DNA of 19,080 nucleotides from Chthoniobacteraceae bacterium (GTDB lineage Bacteria > Verrucomicrobiota > Verrucomicrobiia > Chthoniobacterales > Chthoniobacteraceae). The position numbers and the translations under genes are program-made. The stretch spans positions 1-19,080 of the forward strand of contig JANNXQ010000094.1 of NCBI GenBank assembly GCA_031409655.1, in the 5' to 3' direction. Positions 867 through 14,703 of this stretch are shown one piece after another. Position 1 is the first letter of the stretch. The number at the start of each line of letters is the position of its first letter. The notes below the pieces were generated by a model. The model searched no databases. It was not told the origin of the DNA and worked only from the letters and a program-made list of their open reading frames with translations.

Positions 867-2444
867 TCAGCTCCTCACGAGCTCACGCGGACTCAGTCGG
901 TGCTCAAAGCTATCCACGAGCGCAAGCCAACTCGCCTCGATGATATTGTCCGAAACGCCGACGGTTCCCCAATCGGCATTCCCATCCGTGGAGACGATGA
1001 AGACGCGGGTGCGGGCAGCGGTGCCGGACTGGCCGTTGATGATCCGCACCTTGTAATCGGAAAGCGCGATGGCATCGATCTGCGGATAAAACGGACGCAG
1101 CGCCTTGCGGAGAGCGGCGTCGAGCGCGTTCACGGGACCATCGCCTTCCTCGACCGTGTAGGCTTTCTCGCCGTTGATCGTGAGCTTCACCGTGGCCTCG
1201 CACTTATCCCACGCGCCATTGGCCGTGCGGCGAAAGGAACAGTGGTACTCCTGCAGATCGAAAAGCGGGCGATGCACGCCAACGGTCTTACGCACCAGTA
1301 ACTCGAACGACGCTTCCGCCGCCTCAAACTCGTAACCTTCGCTTTCGAGCTGCTTCACTTCGCTGAGGATCTTGCCGACCTCCGGCGCGCCTTTTTGAAA
1401 CTTAAAGCCGAGCGCCTCGGCCTTCACGATCACGTTCGATTGGCCCGACACATCCGAGATCGAGATGACGCGTTCGTTACCGACCAGCGTCGGATCGATA
1501 TGCTCGTAACTGCTCGCGAGTTTCTGCACGGCGTGGACGTGCTGGCCGCCTTTGTGGGTAAAGGCCGCGGTGCCGATGTAAGGCGCGCGCACGTCGTGCG
1601 GCACGTTAGCGAGTTCATCGACGAAGAGCGACAGCCCGCGCAGCGCCGTGAGATCGCGCGCGACCTTGAGGCCCATCTTGAGCTGAAGATTCGGGATCAC
1701 GGTGATGAGGTTGCAGTTCCCCACGCGCTCGCCGTAGCCATTGATCGTCCCCTGCACCTGCACCGCTCCGGCCTGCACGGCGATGAGCGCATTGGCGACG
1801 CCGAGGCCGCAATCATTGTGCGTGTGGATGCCGACCGGCACGCCGAGCGCGGCGATCACGTCGCGGGTCGTTTGCTCGATGAACTCGGGCATGGTCCCGC
1901 CATTCGTATCGCAGAGGACGACGAGATCGGCGCCCGCCGCATGCGCGGCCTGGATCGTCGCGAGCGAATACTTCGGATCGTCGCGATAGCTGTCGAAGAA
2001 GTGCTCGGCGTCGTAGAGCACCTCGCGTCCGTGCTTCTTCAGGTAGGCGACGGTGTCGCTGATCATCGCGAGGTTTTCCTCGAGCGTGACCCCCAGGACT
2101 TCGGTGACCTGCAGCGGCCAAGTCTTGCCGACGATCGTCACCGCAGGCGTCTCCGCATCGAGGAGCGTGCGGACCTGCGGATCATCCTCCACCTTCATCT
2201 TTCCACGACGCGTCGCCCCGAAAGCGGCGATCTTCGCGTGCTGCCAGGTGCGCTTTTTCGCTTCCTTGAAAAACTCGGCGTCCTTCGGATTCGAGCCGGG
2301 AAATCCGCCCTCGATGTAATCCACGCCAAAGGCATCGAGCCGCTCGGCGACGCGAATCTTATCCAGCACCGAGAACGAAATGCCGGTCCCTTGCGTGCCG
2401 TCGCGAAGGGTGGTGTCGTAGATGGTGACTGTTGGCGTGCTCAT
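867..2444 (-). CDS. cimA: Citramalate synthase (DRE-TIM, LeuA/CimA family)
   Basis: YDTTLRDGTQG, YDAEHFFD, LCDTNGG, HTHND, GYGERVGN, GDGPVNALDAALRKAL, and WGTVGVSDNIIEASW in the regulatory domain. Start taken at ATG 2444 (MSTPTV). Confidence 0.9.
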   Translation of the reverse strand: MSTPTVTIYDTTLRDGTQGTGISFSVLDKIRVAERLDAFGVDYIEGGFPGSNPKDAEFFKEAKKRTWQHAKIAAFGATRRGKMKVEDDPQVRTLLDAETPAVTIVGKTWPLQVTEVLGVTLEENLAMISDTVAYLKKHGREVLYDAEHFFDSYRDDPKYSLATIQAAHAAGADLVVLCDTNGGTMPEFIEQTTRDVIAALGVPVGIHTHNDCGLGVANALIAVQAGAVQVQGTINGYGERVGNCNLITVIPNLQLKMGLKVARDLTALRGLSLFVDELANVPHDVRAPYIGTAAFTHKGGQHVHAVQKLASSYEHIDPTLVGNERVISISDVSGQSNVIVKAEALGFKFQKGAPEVGKILSEVKQLESEGYEFEAAEASFELLVRKTVGVHRPLFDLQEYHCSFRRTANGAWDKCEATVKLTINGEKAYTVEEGDGPVNALDAALRKALRPFYPQIDAIALSDYKVRIINGQSGTAARTRVFIVSTDGNADWGTVGVSDNIIEASWLALVDSFEHRLSPRELVRS

Positions 2445-2478: not shown

Positions 2479-2661
2479 CTAGGCAAGACGCCGGACTTGC
2501 CAACCCTGCACGGTCGCCCCCTCCTCCCTCACGCGCTTCCCCAGCGAGTCCAGAACCCGTTCCCCGCCGGCATCGTCACAAAAGTTCGTCTCGCGCCGAT
2601 CACTCCGGTCGAGAAGGTGAGACACTGCACCCCCGAATTCGACGCGGGCCGTACGTGCCAT
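2479..2661 (-). pseudogene. Degenerate 5' fragment of RAYT-like transposase (type C, copy 1)
   Basis: MARTARVEFGGAVSHLLDRSDRRETNFCDD matches the N-terminus pattern of the intact copies (MxRxxRvEfxgAxYHvxxRGdxRexIfxDD). DNA 2573-2725 is similar to 4915-5062. Confidence 0.8.
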
Positions 2662-2729
2662 GCTCCGGTTCTCAGCCGACCGGCACGGGTTCTGGCCAGC
2701 GAAAATGAGCCGATCTCACAGACCGCATC

Positions 2730-2918
2730 CGGTGATCGTGATCGGGCATCAGGCCCCACGCCTGCACCACCAAACCGTGCCATTCCATGGCCTTCGCCAG
2801 CGTGACCACCCACATCGCCCCGATCCGCGCCGTCCTTGAAAATGGCACGCCGCTCATTGCCGCGGGCAGTCACATGATAGCTGGCGTCGGAGAACTCGAC
2901 GCGAATGGGCCGGGACAT
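2730..2918 (-). pseudogene. Frameshifted, truncated 5' copy of RAYT-A
   Basis: MSRPIRVEFSDASYHVTARGNERRAIFKDGADR, a frameshift, then ..TLAKAMEWHGLVVQAWGLMPDHDH. Closely similar to 4625-4810, including the upstream region through the TIR. Confidence 0.9.
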
Positions 2919-2961
2919 GCCTGCTTCCACCAGAGGCTCCGCAACGGGTCAACTTTCAAGT

Positions 2962-2977
2962 TTCAAGCGTTGACCCC
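2962..2977 (+). repeat. Type A terminal motif TTCAAGCGTTGACCCC (upstream of RAYT-A fragment)
   Basis: Identical to 4854-4869 and to the reverse complement of 3838-3853. Confidence 0.95.
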
Positions 2978-3041
2978 GTTCACATGGTACACCGCTCCCG
3001 TACACCGCTCCCGGATATTAGATGCGCACCTGTCTTGGCAT
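2978..3041 (-). pseudogene. Short 5' fragment of a type B-like RAYT (not in ORF track)
   Basis: Manual translation from ATG 3041 gives MPRQVRI*YPGAVY[13-bp duplication]HV. Compare MPRPLRIEYAGALYHV of 6185-7117. There is a stop codon where Glu is expected. Confidence 0.8.
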
Positions 3042-3106
3042 GGTCCGCAGGGTGTCGAATCACTGGAATCTTGCAACAGGATTCGACTGAACCATTTTTC
3101 TGACAC

Positions 3107-3129
3107 TGTCAATAGTAAGCTTTGACCCC
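3107..3129 (+). repeat. Type B terminal motif TGTCAATAGTAAGCTTTGACCCC
   Basis: 21/23 identical to the reverse complement of 6181-6203. Confidence 0.92.
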
Positions 3130-3158
3130 TCTCACCCCTCTCACCGCTGCGTTCTCTC

Positions 3159-3749
3159 TTACAGATGCCCTTCGCCCTCCCACACGAGGTTGAACTTCAG
3201 TTCCTCCAACCCTGACTCCTGATAGGCTCGATAAAAGTCCTGACTGTGGCCGGTGTCGTCTGAGGCCACCAGAATCAGGTGAGACATGTTCGGAATTTTG
3301 AAGATCAATGATTCGTCGATCAAATTTGGAAAGAATGCTGGCTTCCTGATTCCCATTTCGTGATCCACTCCCAGTTCTTCCCCATTTGGCGCGTTGAAAG
3401 TGGTATTGTTCCGATCCATGCAATTGTAACATGCTGTAATATTTAGAAAGAAGATCTCTTCTCCTGTGTCATTTAGTTGTGTTTTGTGGATGTTCCCGGA
3501 ATATTCCAGGAATTCGCCAAGGCTACTGGAAAGAACCCTTTCAGTAAACACTAGAGCCTTACTAGGGAGATTAAAAAAGCCCTTCGCCGTCGTAAACGGA
3601 GCACGAATAAGTTGAAAAGGAGGGATAGTAGCATCGGCAGGAAGCGTATCTAAATCTCTCATAATCTCCCGCCAGAATTGATCATTGTTCGGAGTTGCAG
3701 CGATTGGAGGTGCCTTATCCGTATATCCTATTTCAAATATTCTCACCAT
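3159..3749 (-). CDS. Putative immunity protein, Imm11/DUF1629-like
   Basis: 196 aa, AT-rich. The pattern LVFTERV...FFLNITACYNCMD...IRKPAF...IFKIP...LVAS...F...SGLEELKFNLVW resembles the Imm11 family as I recall it. No HMM was run. Confidence 0.65.
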   Translation of the reverse strand: MVRIFEIGYTDKAPPIAATPNNDQFWREIMRDLDTLPADATIPPFQLIRAPFTTAKGFFNLPSKALVFTERVLSSSLGEFLEYSGNIHKTQLNDTGEEIFFLNITACYNCMDRNNTTFNAPNGEELGVDHEMGIRKPAFFPNLIDESLIFKIPNMSHLILVASDDTGHSQDFYRAYQESGLEELKFNLVWEGEGHL

Positions 3750-3837
3750 GGGTAGTTACCTCTAATTAATTTGTCGGCTATTCTTTGAAGTTCATTTTTT
3801 AATATCATCGTGTTTTGTAGCGAAACTGGTATGAGAC
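3743..3837 (-). pseudogene. Severed C-terminal tail of upstream gene (possible nuclease toxin)
   Basis: Stop-free frame from the TIR: LIPVSLQNTMILKNELQRIADKLIRGNYPW*. Its stop overlaps the next start (ATGGTGA). Confidence 0.55.
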
Positions 3838-3853
3838 GGGGTCAACGCTTGAA
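3838..3853 (-). repeat. Type A TIR at 3' end of RAYT-A (GGGGTCAACGCTTGAA)
   Basis: Perfect 16-bp inverted repeat of 4854-4869. It directly abuts the stop codon at 3854-3856. Confidence 0.95.
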
Positions 3854-4810
3854 TCATGAATCCACCGCTTGAAACTCCCGCCGGTATCGCTCGAACCGCT
3901 CTGCCACGGTCGCGTCTGCCGGGCTCAACCCGGCCAGGCGCCGCAAGGCGTGGGTGATCGCGCTCCCATCTGCGTAACCCAGCGCTCGCGCCGCTGCGCT
4001 GCGCTTTTCGCCCCCTCCGATTACCCGAAGCCACGCTTGCAACGCTCGATCCGGCTCTGCCGCGGCTAATTCCAGCGCACGTCGCCGCCTCCCGTCCGGG
4101 TCCACTTCCTGTCGACGCCACTGGACCTCCTGTGGACCGAGCCGGTCGCCGAGCATTTCCCCGATGCGCGCCAGGAAACTCTCGCCGCCCAGCACCAACG
4201 CCCCACGCAACTCCTCCCACGGGCTGCGCAGCACCTCCCCAAATGCCGCCCGCACGAAAGCCACGTAGCCTTCCTGGGCTTCCGCCCGATGCGTCCCGAA
4301 ATACGCCAGCCAACTCGCCGAGAGCCACGCCGGCGCTCCCTCGATCCCGGCATACACCCGATGGCTGCTCCAGCGGTAGCTTCGCAGCGCCTCCAGCCGC
4401 TCGCCGGGCACCGGCGCCTGTTTGTCCCGCGGGCGCACCGGGTTGAGATGCACGTAGCGGAGCAACTCCTGCGCATAGCTGTCGGCTTCCACCAGTTGCG
4501 CCTTGAATCGTCCTTGAAAGAGATGCCCGCTGCGCCGCCACCGTCGATTGAAGCGGATCGTGTAAGTCGTCTGCAGCCAGCCCAGCGCTCGACTCAGATT
4601 GGCCCGCGGCGTCTCGATCAGCAGGTGGTAGTGGTTGAGCATCAGGCACCACGCTTGCACCACCAGGCCATGCCCTTGCACCGCCTCCGCCAACGTGGCC
4701 ACAAACATGGCTCGATCCGCGTCATCCTTGAAAATGGCGCGCCGCTCATTGCCGCGGGCAGTCACATGATAGCAGGCGTCGGGGAACTCGACGCGAACGG
4801 GCCGGGACAT
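3854..4810 (-). CDS. HUH/Y1 tyrosine transposase, RAYT-like (RAYT-A), intact
   Basis: YHVTARGNERR, HUH motif NHYHLL, GHLFQGRFKA, YVHLNPVR, YRWSS, and a C-terminal helical/HTH-like extension. Start taken at ATG 4810. Confidence 0.95.
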   Translation of the reverse strand: MSRPVRVEFPDACYHVTARGNERRAIFKDDADRAMFVATLAEAVQGHGLVVQAWCLMLNHYHLLIETPRANLSRALGWLQTTYTIRFNRRWRRSGHLFQGRFKAQLVEADSYAQELLRYVHLNPVRPRDKQAPVPGERLEALRSYRWSSHRVYAGIEGAPAWLSASWLAYFGTHRAEAQEGYVAFVRAAFGEVLRSPWEELRGALVLGGESFLARIGEMLGDRLGPQEVQWRRQEVDPDGRRRRALELAAAEPDRALQAWLRVIGGGEKRSAAARALGYADGSAITHALRRLAGLSPADATVAERFERYRREFQAVDS

Positions 4811-4853
4811 GCCTGCTTCCACCAGAGGCTCCGCGACGTGTCAACTTTCAAGT

Positions 4854-4869
4854 TTCAAGCGTTGACCCC
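4854..4869 (+). repeat. Type A TIR upstream of RAYT-A
   Basis: TTCAAGCGTTGACCCC, which pairs with 3838-3853. Confidence 0.95.
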
Positions 4870-4903
4870 AATCATTGTTGACCCCAATCATTGACCCCAA
4901 TCA
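4862..4903 (+). repeat. Three copies of TTGACCCCAATCA at the TIR tip
   Basis: Copies at 4862-4874, 4878-4890 and 4891-4903. Confidence 0.95.
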
Positions 4904-4999
4904 TCCGACCGACTTCGTCACGAAAGATCATCTCGCGCCGATCACCCCGGTCGAGAAGGGGCACTGCACCCCGAATTCGACGCGGACCTTCCGTGCCAT
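4904..4999 (-). pseudogene. 5' fragment of RAYT-like transposase (type C, copy 2)
   Basis: MARKVRVEFG, a frameshift, then LLDRGDRREMIFRDEVGR. Its upstream region ends in TTTACAGACCCCC (5053-5065). Confidence 0.8.
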
Positions 5000-5085
5000 G
5001 CTCCGGTTCTCAACCGACCGGCCCGGGTTCTGGCCAACGAAAAAGGCCAACGTTTACAGACCCCCTTCCCTCGCGAATGGCATTC

Positions 5086-6126
5086 TCACTCCGGCTTACG
5101 CACGAACCGCGTCCTGCCAGACGCTGTTTCCAAATGCCGTGATCCAACTTTGGGATTAAAAAAAGACTCGAATCGAAGGAAGTGATCACCACCCGCCACC
5201 ATTTCAATATCGAATCGGGCAAAGGTTTTATCGTCAAAAGAAACGAAAAAGCTTTTCTCTACGGAAGAACGCCACTCGCTTCGAGGAAGCGTGGACAACA
5301 TATTAATGACGTAGGATTTCCGGTATCCATTCTCTGGAGCATCGAACAACAACCTATCGTTCCTTTCGAGCAGCCCGCCGTCAGAAACTTCGATTTCAAG
5401 CTTCCAATCGTATTGCCTCTGGCCCGCTGGCCTATCCAACTCGCTATTCCAACACGTAAAAACAACATGATGCCGTGTCTCGTGTTCACCGAAGCTGACG
5501 ACGAGCGGCGACCCGTCTCTTGCAATCCGAAAGGACCTTCTTGAAACACTTACCAATGCCTCAATCGTCCCTTCCTTGTGAAGAATGAAAACAACCGGCG
5601 CTTCACGTTCCGGCTTGTGAGTTGGTGCAAGCCCATAGTTAAACATACCGCTTGAGCTGGCCGCTCCGGAATGATCCTTACGCATCACCTTGTAGCCATT
5701 CCGAGAAACCCAAATAGAAAGACTCAATCCGGATAAGCCTTGAATTGAGAAAAGTCCATCAGCGTCAGTTCTCCGAGAATCGTTCAATGCGTTTTCCTTG
5801 CCATTCCCATTTGCAGAAACCGCAACGGCGGCACCCTCGACCGGATGACCGTTTTGATCTACCACTTTTCCATAAAAAACAATTGGTGCCCGAAAAGCGG
5901 CTAAAAATGCCTTTTGCTTCTCTTCAATGCCGGCAATGGGCTCGTTTTTTCCCTCTGACAGCGGCGGCTCTGGAAGCAGAGGAGCTTGCGATGCCGGTTC
6001 GTATGCAGTTTGCCCCGGCGCTTTTCTTGTTGATGCGCTGAACACTTCATTTGGCTTCCGATCAAAGAAAAGTACTATCGCAATCAACAATGCGATCACC
6101 AAAGTGCCTAATATTATCTTCTTCAC
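5086..6126 (-). CDS. Exported/membrane-anchored protein with carboxypeptidase-regulatory-like (beta-sandwich) domain
   Basis: 346 aa, AT-richer than the flanks. N-terminal MKK plus hydrophobic stretch, and PIVFYGKVVDQNGHPVEGAAV...TDADGLFSI. GTG start. Confidence 0.75.
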   Translation of the reverse strand: MKKIILGTLVIALLIAIVLFFDRKPNEVFSASTRKAPGQTAYEPASQAPLLPEPPLSEGKNEPIAGIEEKQKAFLAAFRAPIVFYGKVVDQNGHPVEGAAVAVSANGNGKENALNDSRRTDADGLFSIQGLSGLSLSIWVSRNGYKVMRKDHSGAASSSGMFNYGLAPTHKPEREAPVVFILHKEGTIEALVSVSRRSFRIARDGSPLVVSFGEHETRHHVVFTCWNSELDRPAGQRQYDWKLEIEVSDGGLLERNDRLLFDAPENGYRKSYVINMLSTLPRSEWRSSVEKSFFVSFDDKTFARFDIEMVAGGDHFLRFESFFNPKVGSRHLETASGRTRFVRKPE

Positions 6127-6180
6127 TGAGTTATAATGTTTAAGGGTAAATCATAAACTTCGCTAGAACGGTAAGCGCTA
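6123..6180 (-). pseudogene. Possible severed C-terminal tail of upstream gene
   Basis: Stop-free frame from the TIR: SAYRSSEVYDLPLNIITQ*. Its TGA overlaps the GTG start of the next gene (GTGA). Confidence 0.45.
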
Positions 6181-6203
6181 GGGGTTAGAGCTTACTATTG
6201 ACA
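6181..6203 (-). repeat. Type B TIR overlapping the 3' end of RAYT-B
   Basis: GGGGTTAGAGCTTACTATTGACA. It encodes the final VNSKL* of RAYT-B and is an inverted match to 3107-3129. Confidence 0.92.
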
Positions 6204-7117
6204 CTTTCCGAAGCGAGTAAGACTGAAAGATAGCTCGCGCTTCCCATCCGCAACCGGGCGGCGATCCAGGGGCGGGTCATCTGCGTCTGTTGCCTCAGCT
6301 GCCGTGCAATGGCCACCTTTCGGCGGTCGCCTTTGGGCAGTGTCTCGAGCGCGACCTCGGCCAATCCTTCTCGGGCCAGCCCCTCTCGCAGCAAGCGCCC
6401 TGCGAGTTGTTCGTCGGTCTCACTCCGCTCCATGGCGCGCTCACCCACTGCGCCGCGCCGCCCCATTCGCTCGGCCAGCCGCTCGAGGAAATCTTCCGCT
6501 CCATGCCACCAGCGGCTCCGAATCGCCATCGCCTCGGTGACTCCATTGGTCCGCGCCCATTCCACCTGCCGGGCATACTCCTGCCGGCTCGCCGCTTCAT
6601 CCCGCTCCAGCGCATGCTCGCCCAGCACCCGGTCCACCCGCAGCCACGACGTCCGCAACGCCGGCTGCAAATACGCCGGGTAACTGCTCCATTGCCAAGC
6701 CTCCAGCGGTGTCTCCGCGGCCAGCAGCCGGGCGCGCGCTGGATTCAGATGCACGTAATCACACGCCGTCACCAGATACGCCCCGCTGCGTTCATCGATG
6801 GGTTGCGCCTTATACCACCCGCCAAACAAATGCCCGCTCCAACGATGCCTCCGGTTAAACCGCCCGGTGAAGGTTCCCAGCAGCCACTTCATCCCGACCA
6901 CCAGATTCGCCTGCGGCGTCTCCAGCACCAGATGGAAGTGATTGCCCATCAGACACCAGGCATGGGCCTGCCAGCCGGTCTTGCCACACACTTCGCCAAG
7001 CGTCTGCAAGAAGCACTCCCGATCCTGATCGTCACGGTAGATCGCCTCCCGCCGATCCCCCCGACTCATCACATGGTAAAGCGCTCCAGCATACTCGATT
7101 CGCAGCGGTCTCGGCAT
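6185..7117 (-). CDS. HUH/Y1 tyrosine transposase, RAYT-like (RAYT-B)
   Basis: MPRPLRIEYAGALYHVMSRGDRRE, NHFHLV, YVHLNPAR, WQWSSY, and a C-terminal HTH-like WIAARLRMGSASYLS. Start taken at ATG 7117. Confidence 0.95.
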   Translation of the reverse strand: MPRPLRIEYAGALYHVMSRGDRREAIYRDDQDRECFLQTLGEVCGKTGWQAHAWCLMGNHFHLVLETPQANLVVGMKWLLGTFTGRFNRRHRWSGHLFGGWYKAQPIDERSGAYLVTACDYVHLNPARARLLAAETPLEAWQWSSYPAYLQPALRTSWLRVDRVLGEHALERDEAASRQEYARQVEWARTNGVTEAMAIRSRWWHGAEDFLERLAERMGRRGAVGERAMERSETDEQLAGRLLREGLAREGLAEVALETLPKGDRRKVAIARQLRQQTQMTRPWIAARLRMGSASYLSVLLASESVNSKL

Positions 7118-7148: not shown

Positions 7149-8357
7149 CTACGCCGGCTCGTGTTTTTTGAGTTCCCGCTTCCACTCCCGCACCTGCGTC
7201 TTCGCAGCTTCCATCTTCTCCGGCGTCTGGTTGCACAGCACCACGCCCATGAGCGCGGAGAGATGATAGTGCCGCACGATGAACTTCTTCTTCGTCCGAT
7301 CGCCCTCGATCTCGAAGCGCGTCGCCACCTTGGTAAAGTCACCCACGAAGTCGAAGCGCAGATCGAAGACCTGGCTCCAGCAATGCGGCATCCAGTCCCA
7401 CTTGATCCGCTTTTTGCCGGTCATATTGGCGCCCGCCACACGGCCTTGCGCGATCGCGGAATCGTGGTGATCGACGCGCCGCACACTCCCGAAGACGTGA
7501 TCGGGATAGAGCGCGATGTCGCCCGCCGCAAAGATCCCCTTTTCGTCCGTCTCGAGGTAGTCGTTCACCGGGGTGCCGTTCGGATAGTTGAGCGGAGTAT
7601 TGAGGAAAAGGCCGTTATTCATGTCCGCACCGAGCGCAACCACCGCAGCGCCGGCGGCGAAACGCTGCCCACTTTTCGTCTGCACATTGCGCAAGACGGT
7701 GCGGCCTTCAAAGCCATTCAGCGCCTCGCCCATACAGAGCTTCACGCCCTGTTTGGCAAAGTAAGCCGTCAGCCAGGCCGCGGTCTCGGCATCCAGAATG
7801 CGCCCCAAAATGTGCGCGCCGCGATGCATCACCGTGACCTGCGCCTTGGGCAACTGGCTGAGGAGAGCGGCCGTTTCGGCAGCGAGAAAGCCGCCGCCGA
7901 TCACCACCACATTGCGCTCGAGGTCCACCACCTCGCGGAGCGCCTGGAGATCGCGCACCGAGCGGAGGTAGAAAACATTGCCCAGATTTGCTCCGGCCAT
8001 CGGCAGTCGCCGGGCGCGGCAGCCCGTGGCGACGAGCGCCTTGCGAAACTCCACGGCCTGGCCATTGCCCAGCACCGCGAGATGCCGCTCGATATTGAGC
8101 TGGCTCACGAGGGTATCCAGACGCACGTCGATCTTCTGCTTTGCAAACCACGCCTCGTCCTGCACGAGCAACTTCGCCGGCGAAGCGGGCGCACTCTTGC
8201 CGAGATACGATTTCAGCAGCAGCGGGCGGTGGTAAGGGAGCACGGTTTCATTGCCCACCAGCATGATGCTGCCCTTTTTGTCGTGCTCGCGGATGCCTTC
8301 GCACGCCCCGACGCCCGCGACTCCGGCTCCAACGATAAGATAGTCTCGGCGAATCAT
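7149..8357 (-). CDS. NAD(P)/FAD-dependent oxidoreductase (ferredoxin reductase-like)
   Basis: LIVGAGVAG, YHRPLL, LVATG, VVIGGGFLAAE and IFAAGD. Start taken at ATG 8357. Confidence 0.9.
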   Translation of the reverse strand: MIRRDYLIVGAGVAGVGACEGIREHDKKGSIMLVGNETVLPYHRPLLLKSYLGKSAPASPAKLLVQDEAWFAKQKIDVRLDTLVSQLNIERHLAVLGNGQAVEFRKALVATGCRARRLPMAGANLGNVFYLRSVRDLQALREVVDLERNVVVIGGGFLAAETAALLSQLPKAQVTVMHRGAHILGRILDAETAAWLTAYFAKQGVKLCMGEALNGFEGRTVLRNVQTKSGQRFAAGAAVVALGADMNNGLFLNTPLNYPNGTPVNDYLETDEKGIFAAGDIALYPDHVFGSVRRVDHHDSAIAQGRVAGANMTGKKRIKWDWMPHCWSQVFDLRFDFVGDFTKVATRFEIEGDRTKKKFIVRHYHLSALMGVVLCNQTPEKMEAAKTQVREWKRELKKHEPA

Positions 8358-11232: not shown

Positions 11233-12579
11233 ATGCTCCCTGAATCCCACGACGCCGAGATCCCCAGGGGCAGCGATCCCTATGCGGCCTTCCGCTTCAG
11301 CGACTATCGCCGATATTTCATCGGCGGATTCATCTCCGTGATTGGCCGCCAGATGCTCGCCGTCGCCATTGGCTGGGAAGTCTATCAGCGCACCCATTCC
11401 GCCACGGCGCTCGGCCTGGTGGGGCTCATGGGCGCGATCCCCGTCATCCTGCTCTCCCTGCCAGCGGGGCACATCGCGGACCGGCTCAGCCGGAAGTGGA
11501 TCATCATCCTTGCGCAGTGCCTGCTCGTCGTCACGTCGCTGGCGCTTGGCTGGCTCGCGCTCGGGCACACCGTGGCCTTGCCCGTCGAGTGGGCGCAGCG
11601 GGCGCTCTCCACGCTGGCCGCTTGGTTTGGGGAAAAAGAGCGCGTCGTTTTCGGACCGGAAGTGCCGCTGATTTATGGGCTCCTTTTGATCAATGGAACC
11701 GCCCGCGCCTTTGGCTGGGCCGCGCGCACGCCATACGCCGCGGGCCTCGTGCCGCGCCGGGCGCTGGCCAATGCGGTGACTTGGGGCAGCAGCAATTTCG
11801 AGATCGGCTCCATGGTCGGCCCGGCCATCGGCGGACTGCTCCTCGCGCAGTTCGGCTTCCCCTTTGTCTATGCGCTGGATGCCGGGTGCCAGCTCGCCTT
11901 CATCGCCTTTCTCCTCCCCACCCGCTCACGGCAGGAACCCCACGAGCCGACCGGCGAACATCCCGTGCGCGATCTGCTCGCCGGCCTGCGTTTCGTCTGG
12001 GGGAAGAAGGTGATTCTCGCGACGATCACCCTCGATCTCTTCGCTGTGCTGCTCGGCGGGTCGATTGCGCTCCTGCCGATGTTTGCCGAGCAGATCCTGC
12101 ACGTCGGTCCGGTCGGGCTGGGCTGGCTGCGCGCCGCGCCGTCCATCGGGGCCGTGACCATGGCCATGGCGCTCACCCATCTGCCACCGATGCGCCGCGC
12201 TGGCGTCGCGATGCTCTGGGCGGTCGCGGTCTTCGGCGTGGCCACGATCGTCTTCGGGCTCTCGCAAAACTACTGGCTCTCCCTCGCCGCGCTCGCCCTC
12301 ACCGGCGCCGCAGACAATATCAGCGTCGTCGTCCGCCACACCCTCGTGCAACTGATGACGCCGGACCAAATGCGCGGCCGCGTCGCCGCGGTGAACAACA
12401 TTTTCATTGGCTCTTCGAATGAACTCGGGGCGTTTGAGAGTGGACTGACGGCGGCCTATTTCGGGCCGGTGCTTTCGGTGGTCGGCGGCGGCATCGGGAC
12501 GATCCTCGCGGTGCTGGCGGTCGTGGCGATCTGGCCGGAAGTCCGCCGCATCGGCCCGCTCGCGCGAGCGGGTGGATGA
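11233..12579 (+). CDS. MFS transporter (EntS/H+ antiporter-like)
   Basis: Multiple TM segments, GHIADRLSRK (MFS motif A), LDLFAVLLGG and TPDQMRGRV. Confidence 0.9.
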   Translation: MLPESHDAEIPRGSDPYAAFRFSDYRRYFIGGFISVIGRQMLAVAIGWEVYQRTHSATALGLVGLMGAIPVILLSLPAGHIADRLSRKWIIILAQCLLVVTSLALGWLALGHTVALPVEWAQRALSTLAAWFGEKERVVFGPEVPLIYGLLLINGTARAFGWAARTPYAAGLVPRRALANAVTWGSSNFEIGSMVGPAIGGLLLAQFGFPFVYALDAGCQLAFIAFLLPTRSRQEPHEPTGEHPVRDLLAGLRFVWGKKVILATITLDLFAVLLGGSIALLPMFAEQILHVGPVGLGWLRAAPSIGAVTMAMALTHLPPMRRAGVAMLWAVAVFGVATIVFGLSQNYWLSLAALALTGAADNISVVVRHTLVQLMTPDQMRGRVAAVNNIFIGSSNELGAFESGLTAAYFGPVLSVVGGGIGTILAVLAVVAIWPEVRRIGPLARAGG

Positions 12580-12710
12580 TCTGGGAACGCCGCCGTCCCG
12601 TGCGGCATCGTTATCCTTGCGCGCAGCGCCGCTCCTTCATGGCCGGCGTCGAGAATGGCGCTGCGCGCGATCGTCACAATGCCGCACGGGACGGCGGCGC
12701 TCCCAGATCA
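12577..12710. repeat. REPIN-like palindromic element, copy 1
   Basis: 32-bp inverted arms 12577-12608 and 12679-12710 with one mismatch, plus an inner gcgcgcagcgcc/ggcgctgcgcgc pair. Confidence 0.9.
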
Positions 12711-14468: not shown

Positions 14469-14533
14469 TGCGGGGTTTGTAGGAGTGGATTGAAAGGGTC
14501 GCAACATCCGTTGGCCGGGGCCGCGATCGGAGT

Positions 14534-14658
14534 CCTGGGAGCGCCGCCGTCCCGTGCGGCAAACCAACCAGCGCGCGCAGCGCCAAACTCTTCACCGTTG
14601 TCGGATGGCGCTTCGCGCAACGGATAGGTTTGCCGCACGGGACGGCGGCGCTCCCAGG
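14534..14658. repeat. REPIN-like palindromic element, copy 2
   Basis: Perfect 32-bp inverted arms 14534-14565 and 14627-14658. Same core CTGGGAGCGCCGCCGTCCCGTGCGGCA as copy 1. Confidence 0.92.
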
Positions 14659-14703
14659 CCAGCATCCGCGGGCCAGTGCACATTCGCGATTTCCCAAGCC
14701 GAC

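Follow-up and report, generated by a model that had tools for sequence, protein, structure and literature searches.

A nested island of TIRtrons in a Chthoniobacteraceae genome suggests that these elements move neighbouring genes

TIRYTs or TIRtrons, described by Di Nocera, De Gregorio and Rocco (2013; PMC3733652), were equated by Quentin et al. (2018; PMC6006769) with subclass 2.1 of the TnpA-Y1 enzymes, which is the largest group of Y1 enzymes not belonging to insertion sequences (IS) and occurs in 14.9% of the sampled species (Table 1 of that paper). Their named counterpart among the RAYTs is Group 1 of Bertels et al. (2017; PMC5581495). In the literature, supplements and subscription journals aside, we found neither an activity nor a role demonstrated for subclass 2.1. 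The nearest published claim is an association with the prochlorosins, where full and truncated copies of a TnpA-REP of the same subclass 2.1 lie among variable antagonism-type genes and a role in recombination was proposed (Laurenceau et al., bioRxiv 10.1101/2020.03.09.984088), a causal claim that the authors later withdrew. Here we analyzed a window of 19,080 nucleotides, the whole of contig JANNXQ010000094.1 (C94) from the assembly GCA_031409655.1 of a Chthoniobacteraceae bacterium (6.85 Mb in 306 contigs), which holds an island of such RAYT genes and their fragments. The element family is already known; the subject of this study is the foreign DNA enclosed between its ends.

Between a cimA-type gene and an oxidoreductase gene, the island contains six RAYT pieces (two intact, four fragments), all on the minus strand, and two foreign cassettes, both of which lie between facing tips of 24-bp terminal inverted repeats (TIRs). 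In this island and in related genomes we observed footprints of rejoining close to the element ends, nested elements, foreign genes bounded by tips, and filled and empty insertion sites; that the RAYT made the cuts is what we infer. The island suggests that TIRtrons move neighbouring genes, but not as a true integron. In our preferred reading, which we give a probability of roughly 0.55, TIRtrons cut and rejoin DNA a short way beyond their ends, insert into one another, and take flanking DNA along, in a geometry that resembles IS26 arrays and not integrons. The features are as follows, with the two flanking genes last:

2500..2726, minus strand: RAYT-C' 5' fragment (~54 codons, frameshifted; found by tblastn)
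2727..2977, minus strand: RAYT-A' 5' fragment (~60 codons) with 5' TIR-A (2954-2977)
2978..3129, minus strand: RAYT-B' 5' fragment (~15 codons) with 5' TIR-B (3106-3129)
3130..3837, minus strand: cassette 1, G+C 0.44; toxin C-terminal stub, then Imm11-like gene
3838..4869, minus strand: TIRtron A, complete; 3' TIR 3838-3861, RAYT-A 3854-4810, 5' TIR 4846-4869
4870..4904, no strand: tip "stutter"; two tandem units (TIR suffix plus tail), a 6-nt tail, then RAYT-C sequence
4905..5064, minus strand: RAYT-C 5' fragment (~32 codons, frameshifted) with 5' TIR-C (5041-5064)
5065..6180, minus strand: cassette 2, G+C 0.48; complete 346-aa gene at 5086-6126
6181..7117, minus strand: 3' TIR-B (6181-6204) and RAYT-B (6185-7117); no 5' TIR
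867..2444, minus strand: cimA-type housekeeping gene (HMGL-like and LeuA_dimer, Pfam); left flank, outside the island
7149..8354, minus strand: pyridine nucleotide-disulphide oxidoreductase (Pfam); right flank, outside the island

Read along the minus strand, intact RAYT-B is followed by fragment C, intact RAYT-A, and then fragments B', A' and C'. All four fragments comprise N-terminal (5'-only) sequence and are co-oriented with the intact genes. Both cassettes are far below the genome G+C of 0.63, and both cassette genes share the RAYT orientation. A first-pass annotation, made from the sequence alone, had proposed an integron-like gene-capture array at this place. Its order, strands and coordinates of RAYT pieces, tips and cassettes were confirmed, as were the position of both AT-richer cassettes between inward-pointing tips (by tip positions and G+C) and the co-orientation of both cassette genes with the RAYT genes. 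RAYT-C' is 84-88% identical to the RAYT-C fragment and ends at 2726 in a degenerate 5' TIR (CAGACCGC at 2719-2726), and RAYT-A' is 88% identical to positions 4624-4869 over 247 nt. RAYT-B' has an internal stop and a 13-bp duplication, and its region contains a 33-nt inverted match to 6180-6212. The 3' TIR of TIRtron A overlaps the stop of RAYT-A; RAYT-B, which has lost its 5' inverted repeat, starts 31 bp past the oxidoreductase stop.

By their sequences, the island RAYT genes fit the TIRYTs/TIRtrons, i.e. TnpA-Y1 subclass 2.1. RAYT-A (318 aa) and RAYT-B (310 aa), which are 35-40% identical to each other, both match Y1_Tnp (PF01797) over the cut-off (E = 1.6e-12 and 1e-8, respectively). The subclass 2.1 motifs NH[YFV]H and Y[IV]HLNP (PMC6006769, Table 1) take the form NHYH and YVHLNP in RAYT-A, and NHFH and YVHLNP in RAYT-B. 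H59, H61 and Y118 are invariant across 15 sequences. Both A and B keep the HUH motif and the tyrosine; in RAYT-B a Trp replaces a nearly invariant Arg. The C-terminal tail is long, with an HTH_18 match below the cut-off in A (E = 0.013) and none in B, and a sequence search of the PDB found no solved relative. With published TIRtrons the locus shares a Y1 HUH gene that encodes 310-350 aa and carries the motifs NH[YF]H and Y[IV]HLNP, GGGG-headed TIRs of which some lie over the stop codon, and gene-less TIR pairs elsewhere in the genome. The TIRYT assignment made in the first-pass annotation is supported by both motifs and inverted repeats (PMC3733652, PMC6006769). In contrast, the cargo, the nested 5' stacks, the stutters, the 6-12-nt tails and any activity test are not described in the three articles on these elements (PMC3733652, PMC6006769, PMC5581495; supplements aside), and a literature search with the same restriction, subscription journals also aside, found cargo carriage, stacks, stutters and tails nowhere in print for them. 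RAYTs in plasmid records (n = 28) were all distant (<60% identity), and viral contigs had a RAYT at two loci. One 24-kb Pseudomonas aeruginosa plasmid (NZ_CP116719.1) has three RAYT-like places.

The recurring island motifs are the tips (TGACCCC type) of 24-bp inverted ends of three TIR types. They end at +2977, +3129, -3838, +4869 (again at 4885 and 4898), +5064 and -6181. The 7-mer WRACCCC is mildly enriched in the window (11 vs 5.8 expected; 10 of 200 shuffles reach 11); eight of the 11 lie within 2971-6187, six of which end 20-24-bp repeats that pair with another. The arms of TIRtron A (23 nt) are 91% complementary. Each of the window ends agrees with the TIRYT consensus GGGGWSAS at 7/8 positions (GGGGTCAA, GGGGTCTG, GGGGTTAG), and many relatives match it fully. 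Across the genome we counted 54 tip-like sites, some of them gene-less pairs or stacked 5' ends. A 24-bp inverted pair was present at 44/59 full-length homologous open reading frames (ORFs) of relatives, some loci being counted twice, and at 32/96 loci from wider collections.

Hairpin ends as in IS200 or REPs were rejected, because 8/10 end strands fold no better than shuffles; in the remaining two, it is the 3' end of B that pairs with its tail. The IS200/IS605 elements (subclass 1.1) differ in their subterminal hairpins, of which the ends here gave no convincing case, and in their short Y---Q protein and near-identical copies, compared with Y---NP and 310-318 aa here. At 6170-6195, the first 10 nt past the B 3' tip are a 9/10 reverse complement of the TIR interior (fold z -2.97), a pattern that fold-back synthesis or the joining of two ends head to head could produce. 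On contigs C15, C45, C133, C6 and C29 of genome G000, paired TIRs without a gene form miniature elements of 60-105 bp; one of them, on C45, presumably has a group II intron ORF on one side and an IS256-like gene on the other, judged by eye. Many ends in the TIR library carry TGTCAA ~24 nt from the tip, i.e. an inward TTGACA, which could be a RAYT -35 box overlapping the enzyme binding site (autoregulation).

The island structure is real, because contigs span its junctions at even depth. Logan contigs of runs X1 and X2 cross 3129, 3838, 5064 and 6181 with 0-1 differences at depth 8-14, and contigs of X3 and X4 span part of these four cassette junctions (four runs from one study, of which X1 may be the source of the assembly). 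Misassembly of repeats, a concern that the first-pass annotation itself had raised, was rejected, since all four cassette junctions lie on single contigs in two runs. The circles and alternative junctions for which it had suggested a search of reads were not seen: among the matches listed from the contigs of the four runs, which drop rare variants, there was no excision, no circle, no alternative cassette and no circular joint of element plus cargo, and no RNA dataset holding the locus was listed. A low-depth record of X3 (record 21) joins A' alleles to the A 5' end (window 2821-2977 and 4713-4869), either a possible deletion allele without cassette 1 and RAYT-A or an assembly chimera.

The gene of cassette 2 belongs to a family associated with tips. 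It encodes an N-terminal hydrophobic stretch and a CarboxypepD_reg domain (Pfam, E = 3.3e-9) and is preceded by just 54 bp, too short to assign. A hydrolase C-terminal motif adjoins the homologs in 11/29 loci, and 6/10 such upstream ORFs match DUF900/Abhydrolase, so that the cassette 2 protein is a probable partner of an alpha/beta-hydrolase, immunity-like as judged from its gene context. A tip was found within 1.5 kb of 10/29 cassette 2 homologs, compared with 1/30 type I methylase (N6_Mtase), 1/30 ParE and 0/29 cimA genes (p = 0.0025 for the first contrast). Under a stricter tip rule the counts were seven for the homologs, none for N6_Mtase, ParE and cimA, and two for SMI1_KNR4. The seven tip-adjacent homologs are scattered on the protein tree and need six changes, although kin are not independent. 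At locus L088 the order is RAYT end, tip, hydrolase stub, partner gene, tip. In the congener G001, facing tips enclose a gene of this family at distances of 37 and 25 bp, forming a 1.26-kb TIR-bounded insertion without an intact RAYT, and the two conserved genes flanking this insertion are directly adjacent in G003 and G000.

In cassette 1, a toxin C-terminal stub (~3743-3825, ~25 codons) is followed by an Imm11-like gene (3159-3749, 196 aa), whose Pfam match to Imm11 is below the cut-off (E = 0.012) and whose best Atlas match is also Imm11 (score 0.92, recognition low). Imm11 is listed with AHH, HNH and SHH nuclease toxins (PMC3482391). In G500, a genome of another family, a 49%-identical gene lies behind a different TIRtron with another TIR type, preceded by a longer stub that is 61% identical to the cassette 1 stub over 23 aa. 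Homologs are scarce (three in the protein database, two in 400 genomes of the phylum), a search of 151 genomes for the Imm11 family gave three loci, none with a tip, and tips were present at 1/5 Imm11 loci. Both foreign genes are probably leftovers of bacterial toxin-immunity pairs. The toxin/immunity origin of the cargo held for cassette 1 with its stub and Imm11-like module, but did not extend to a general bias toward immunity families. Likewise, of the claim that both cassettes begin mid-gene exactly at the tip, the first part stands for cassette 1, which starts within the toxin gene, but not for cassette 2, whose gene is complete, and the exactness at the tip does not hold, as the following junctions show.

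For 33 of the 323 tips examined, the flank occurs a second time in near-identical form, which corresponds to 31 distinct junctions; these second copies are mostly RAYT genes, miniature elements and repeats. Identity to the second copy begins 6-12 nt beyond CCCC in 23/31 junctions, later in eight and at 0-5 nt in none, and in 15 of the 23 the shared stretch opens with C. The tail at the 4898 tip is ~6 nt. Joining at the CCCC tip itself, as first proposed, is contradicted by the absence of any junction within 5 nt among these 31, with the window junction at 2977 as a possible exception. Exact CCCC joining or CCCC microhomology with a donor was rejected, the apparent matches being self-matches of stutters. 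Such stutters (tandem copies of TIR suffix and flank prefix) were present at 43/115 tips vs 10/1162 control ACCCC sites; a short tandem repeat also occurs at the 3129 tip of cassette 1. Inspection of 33 elements by eye revealed no target-site duplications. Neighbouring RAYT pieces are co-stranded in 21/22 pairs of relatives and in 6/6 in the window island. The E. coli TnpA-REP cuts away from its bound REP and performs strand transfer (PMC3333891). At locus L140 (1-4300; G042:C17), the two ends of one TIRtron, each with a different tail of 18-19 nt, meet the same target position in inverted orientation, with 99.9% identity over 1568 nt; this may be an inverted duplication or two element orientations merged at a contig end.

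Tip-bounded cargo recurs in relatives, as the G001 insertion and a survey of 60 long RAYT loci, chosen from the best matches, both indicate. Facing-tip segments were present in 18/60 loci (n = 20); 17 were below the locus G+C, and 14 had the same TIR type on both sides. Flanks beyond the tips were AT-richer in 29/37 (3') and 27/39 (5') cases, some of them within RHS regions, and the longest ORF in low-G+C flanks was co-oriented with the RAYT in 18/23 (p = 0.011). The proposal that foreign DNA is joined beside the element ends is supported. Pfam matches were obtained for 7/25 cassette ORFs and 19/65 flanking ORFs (longest-ORF calls, so that some cargo ORFs are shadows); the named ones were two RHS, one Imm11, one PIN and one HicB, the majority having no name. 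Immunity families were absent from the 25 cassette ORFs, and the 65 flanking ORFs gave one Imm11 and two RHS by these crude calls. A general immunity bias of tips was rejected, since SMI1_KNR4 genes, the check for immunity/toxin enrichment, were not significantly enriched near tips (2/25 vs 2/60 controls, p = 0.58; stricter rule 2/25 vs 0/60, p = 0.08).

The cimA-oxidoreductase junction is not a shared capture site. The two genes adjoin each other in G002 and G005, spaced by ~100 and ~150 bp, respectively, and are 1.2 kb apart in G006; in the other 6/9 relatives, including the two closest, they are not adjacent. None of the nine relatives has a RAYT or an island at this junction, and the hotspot with variable cassettes suggested by the first-pass annotation found no support in this interval comparison. 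From these comparisons, the island is an insertion at a labile junction and not a shared platform. In G006 the junction holds a different 1.2-kb insert without a RAYT match (L037:2300-3484). Elsewhere in the window, two intergenic inverted-repeat pairs (12577-12710 and 14518-14674) with a 27-nt exact common core, REP/REPIN-like, flank an arginyl-tRNA-synthetase-like ORF.

Each TIRtron consists of a RAYT gene of subclass 2.1 flanked by 24-bp inverted repeats, as seen in TIRtron A. We propose that the enzyme binds the end, probably through its C-terminal helix-turn-helix-like region, and that single-stranded DNA is cut and rejoined ~6-12 nt outside CCCC, a position taken from the genomes with a chemistry presumed from other Y1 enzymes. 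If the cut is made outside the tip, every new junction would inherit a short tail, and repeated cutting there would leave the tandem stutters observed. Ends often land in or beside other TIRtrons and so give the stacks of co-oriented 5' fragments. An element in a toxin-immunity locus may later move together with its flank, closed by a second end-joining, and such a unit may settle beside a resident element in the order 3' end, cargo, 5' end, the geometry of IS26 arrays. The cargo would be cut at arbitrary positions, and pieces keeping one whole co-oriented gene would presumably persist under selection, this gene often being an orphan partner of an antibacterial toxin.

Among HUH enzymes, the one-ended capture by ISCR/IS91 is a further likeness, as it mobilizes adjacent DNA, but this is a Y2 rolling-circle enzyme with oriIS and terIS in place of inverted ends. 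The IS26/IS6 pseudo-compound structures share with the island directly repeated elements with cargo between them, insertion beside a resident copy and the loss of target duplications (PMC7986276), and, by analogy with the IS26 units, an element with its flank may travel as one unit and come to rest next to a resident copy. They differ by a DDE transposase acting on double-stranded DNA, near-identical copies and exact inverted-repeat ends, compared with a HUH enzyme, diverged copies and a variable tail here. With rAIDs and integrons the island has in common low-G+C, co-directional, orphan genes, here of putative immunity type, behind a recombination enzyme (bioRxiv 10.1101/471110; PMC3482391); both cassettes are co-directional and of low G+C, with a weak Imm11 match and a cassette 2 role taken from gene context. 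Those systems use an XerD-like tyrosine recombinase, conserved intergenic repeats and up to 31 genes (bioRxiv 10.1101/471110; PMC3482391), whereas here each cassette has one gene, and cassettes are spaced by element ends and fragments. No tyrosine recombinase (IntI, XerD-like) was detected among the six island ORFs and fragments scanned, in agreement with the first-pass annotation, and there is no fixed crossover: offsets are 6-12 nt and beyond, stub lengths differ, and the cassette ends are occupied by TIRs. The island is thus neither an integron nor a rAID, and the integron-like recombination site once envisaged is not borne out, because the two tips of each cassette differ in TIR type and cassette ends are not gene-precise. 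The prochlorosin system differs by facing genes, the lack of inverted repeats found, and a diversification of one family instead of foreign carriage (bioRxiv 10.1101/2020.03.09.984088).

Several observations weigh against carriage of flanking DNA by TIRtrons. The tips around each window cassette are of different TIR types, so that extra nested events are needed, and neither outer island edge is a tip. Eight of the 31 offsets exceed 12 nt, and at 2977 the RAYT-B' coding consensus seems, by eye, to come within ~2 nt of the tip. No near-identical donor was found at the nucleotide level for any of 18 cassettes among all collected loci and G000; foreign cargo hence contributed nothing to the offset rule, which was drawn from miniature elements, repeats and nested copies of RAYT genes. 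In other collections, where many contigs are short, 96 loci yielded only five cargo-holding facing pairs, and stutters at only 13/120 tips. In the two closest congeners, cimA and the oxidoreductase gene each lie beside other genes, which indicates that the junction is labile anyway. It is very improbable that the island is an artefact of assembly or that other insertion sequences targeting TIR tips made the junctions: the assembly is fragmented, but the even-depth single contigs and the inexact repeats (84-94% identical) speak against an artefact, and no further transposase was present among the island ORFs scanned.

A rather unlikely alternative is that selfish TIRtrons favour AT-rich toxin islands and hitch-hike there passively. 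The enzyme would make junctions without transporting cargo; deletions beside the elements would shorten the flanks, and the shortened pieces would be moved by RecA recombination between RAYT copies that resemble each other. The AT-richer flanks, some of them in RHS regions, would follow from this. A and A' are direct repeats of 88-94% identity, X3 record 21 looks like a RecA deletion (if not a chimera), and among the RAYT groups, Group 1 most resembles an IS (PMC5581495). It is difficult to reconcile with the G001 cassette, which lies between conserved genes without an intact RAYT and is missing from two congeners, and with type I methylase and ParE genes, which are likewise carried on islands and are seldom near tips. 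A domesticated, integron-like platform, in which a resident RAYT captures whole genes at a fixed site with an immunity bias, drives them from a promoter of its own, and excises and reorders them, appears improbable. Cargo is indeed often one whole gene 20-150 bp from the tips, two gene families are repeatedly associated with tips, and longest ORFs are co-oriented as given above. Yet replication-strand bias is a property of Y1 elements from which this co-orientation could stem. Such a bias is stated for IS608 (PMC6006769). Moreover, the nine relatives show no fixed site, promoter-like sites for the cassettes number 2 vs 1.9 by chance, the SMI1_KNR4, Imm11 and ORF counts do not reveal an immunity bias, and the same events destroyed most RAYT copies in the nest.

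Beyond the transport of flanking DNA by TIRtrons, a wider role of subclass 2.1 as a route of integrase-free gene acquisition is tentative: whole partner genes from toxin loci would be delivered tip-bounded and build orphan-immunity repertoires. It is equally tentative that this acquisition proceeds by cuts at a fixed short distance outside the ends and delivers to housekeeping junctions in this bacterial family. The locus and its relatives define a substrate, the 24-bp end with its tail, and lead to two predictions: cleavage 6-12 nt outside CCCC, frequently ahead of a C, and the carriage of flanking genes. The question can therefore be tested directly in vitro. Should transport of cargo be confirmed, TIRtrons would provide a gene-moving route that is invisible to integron and IS finders.

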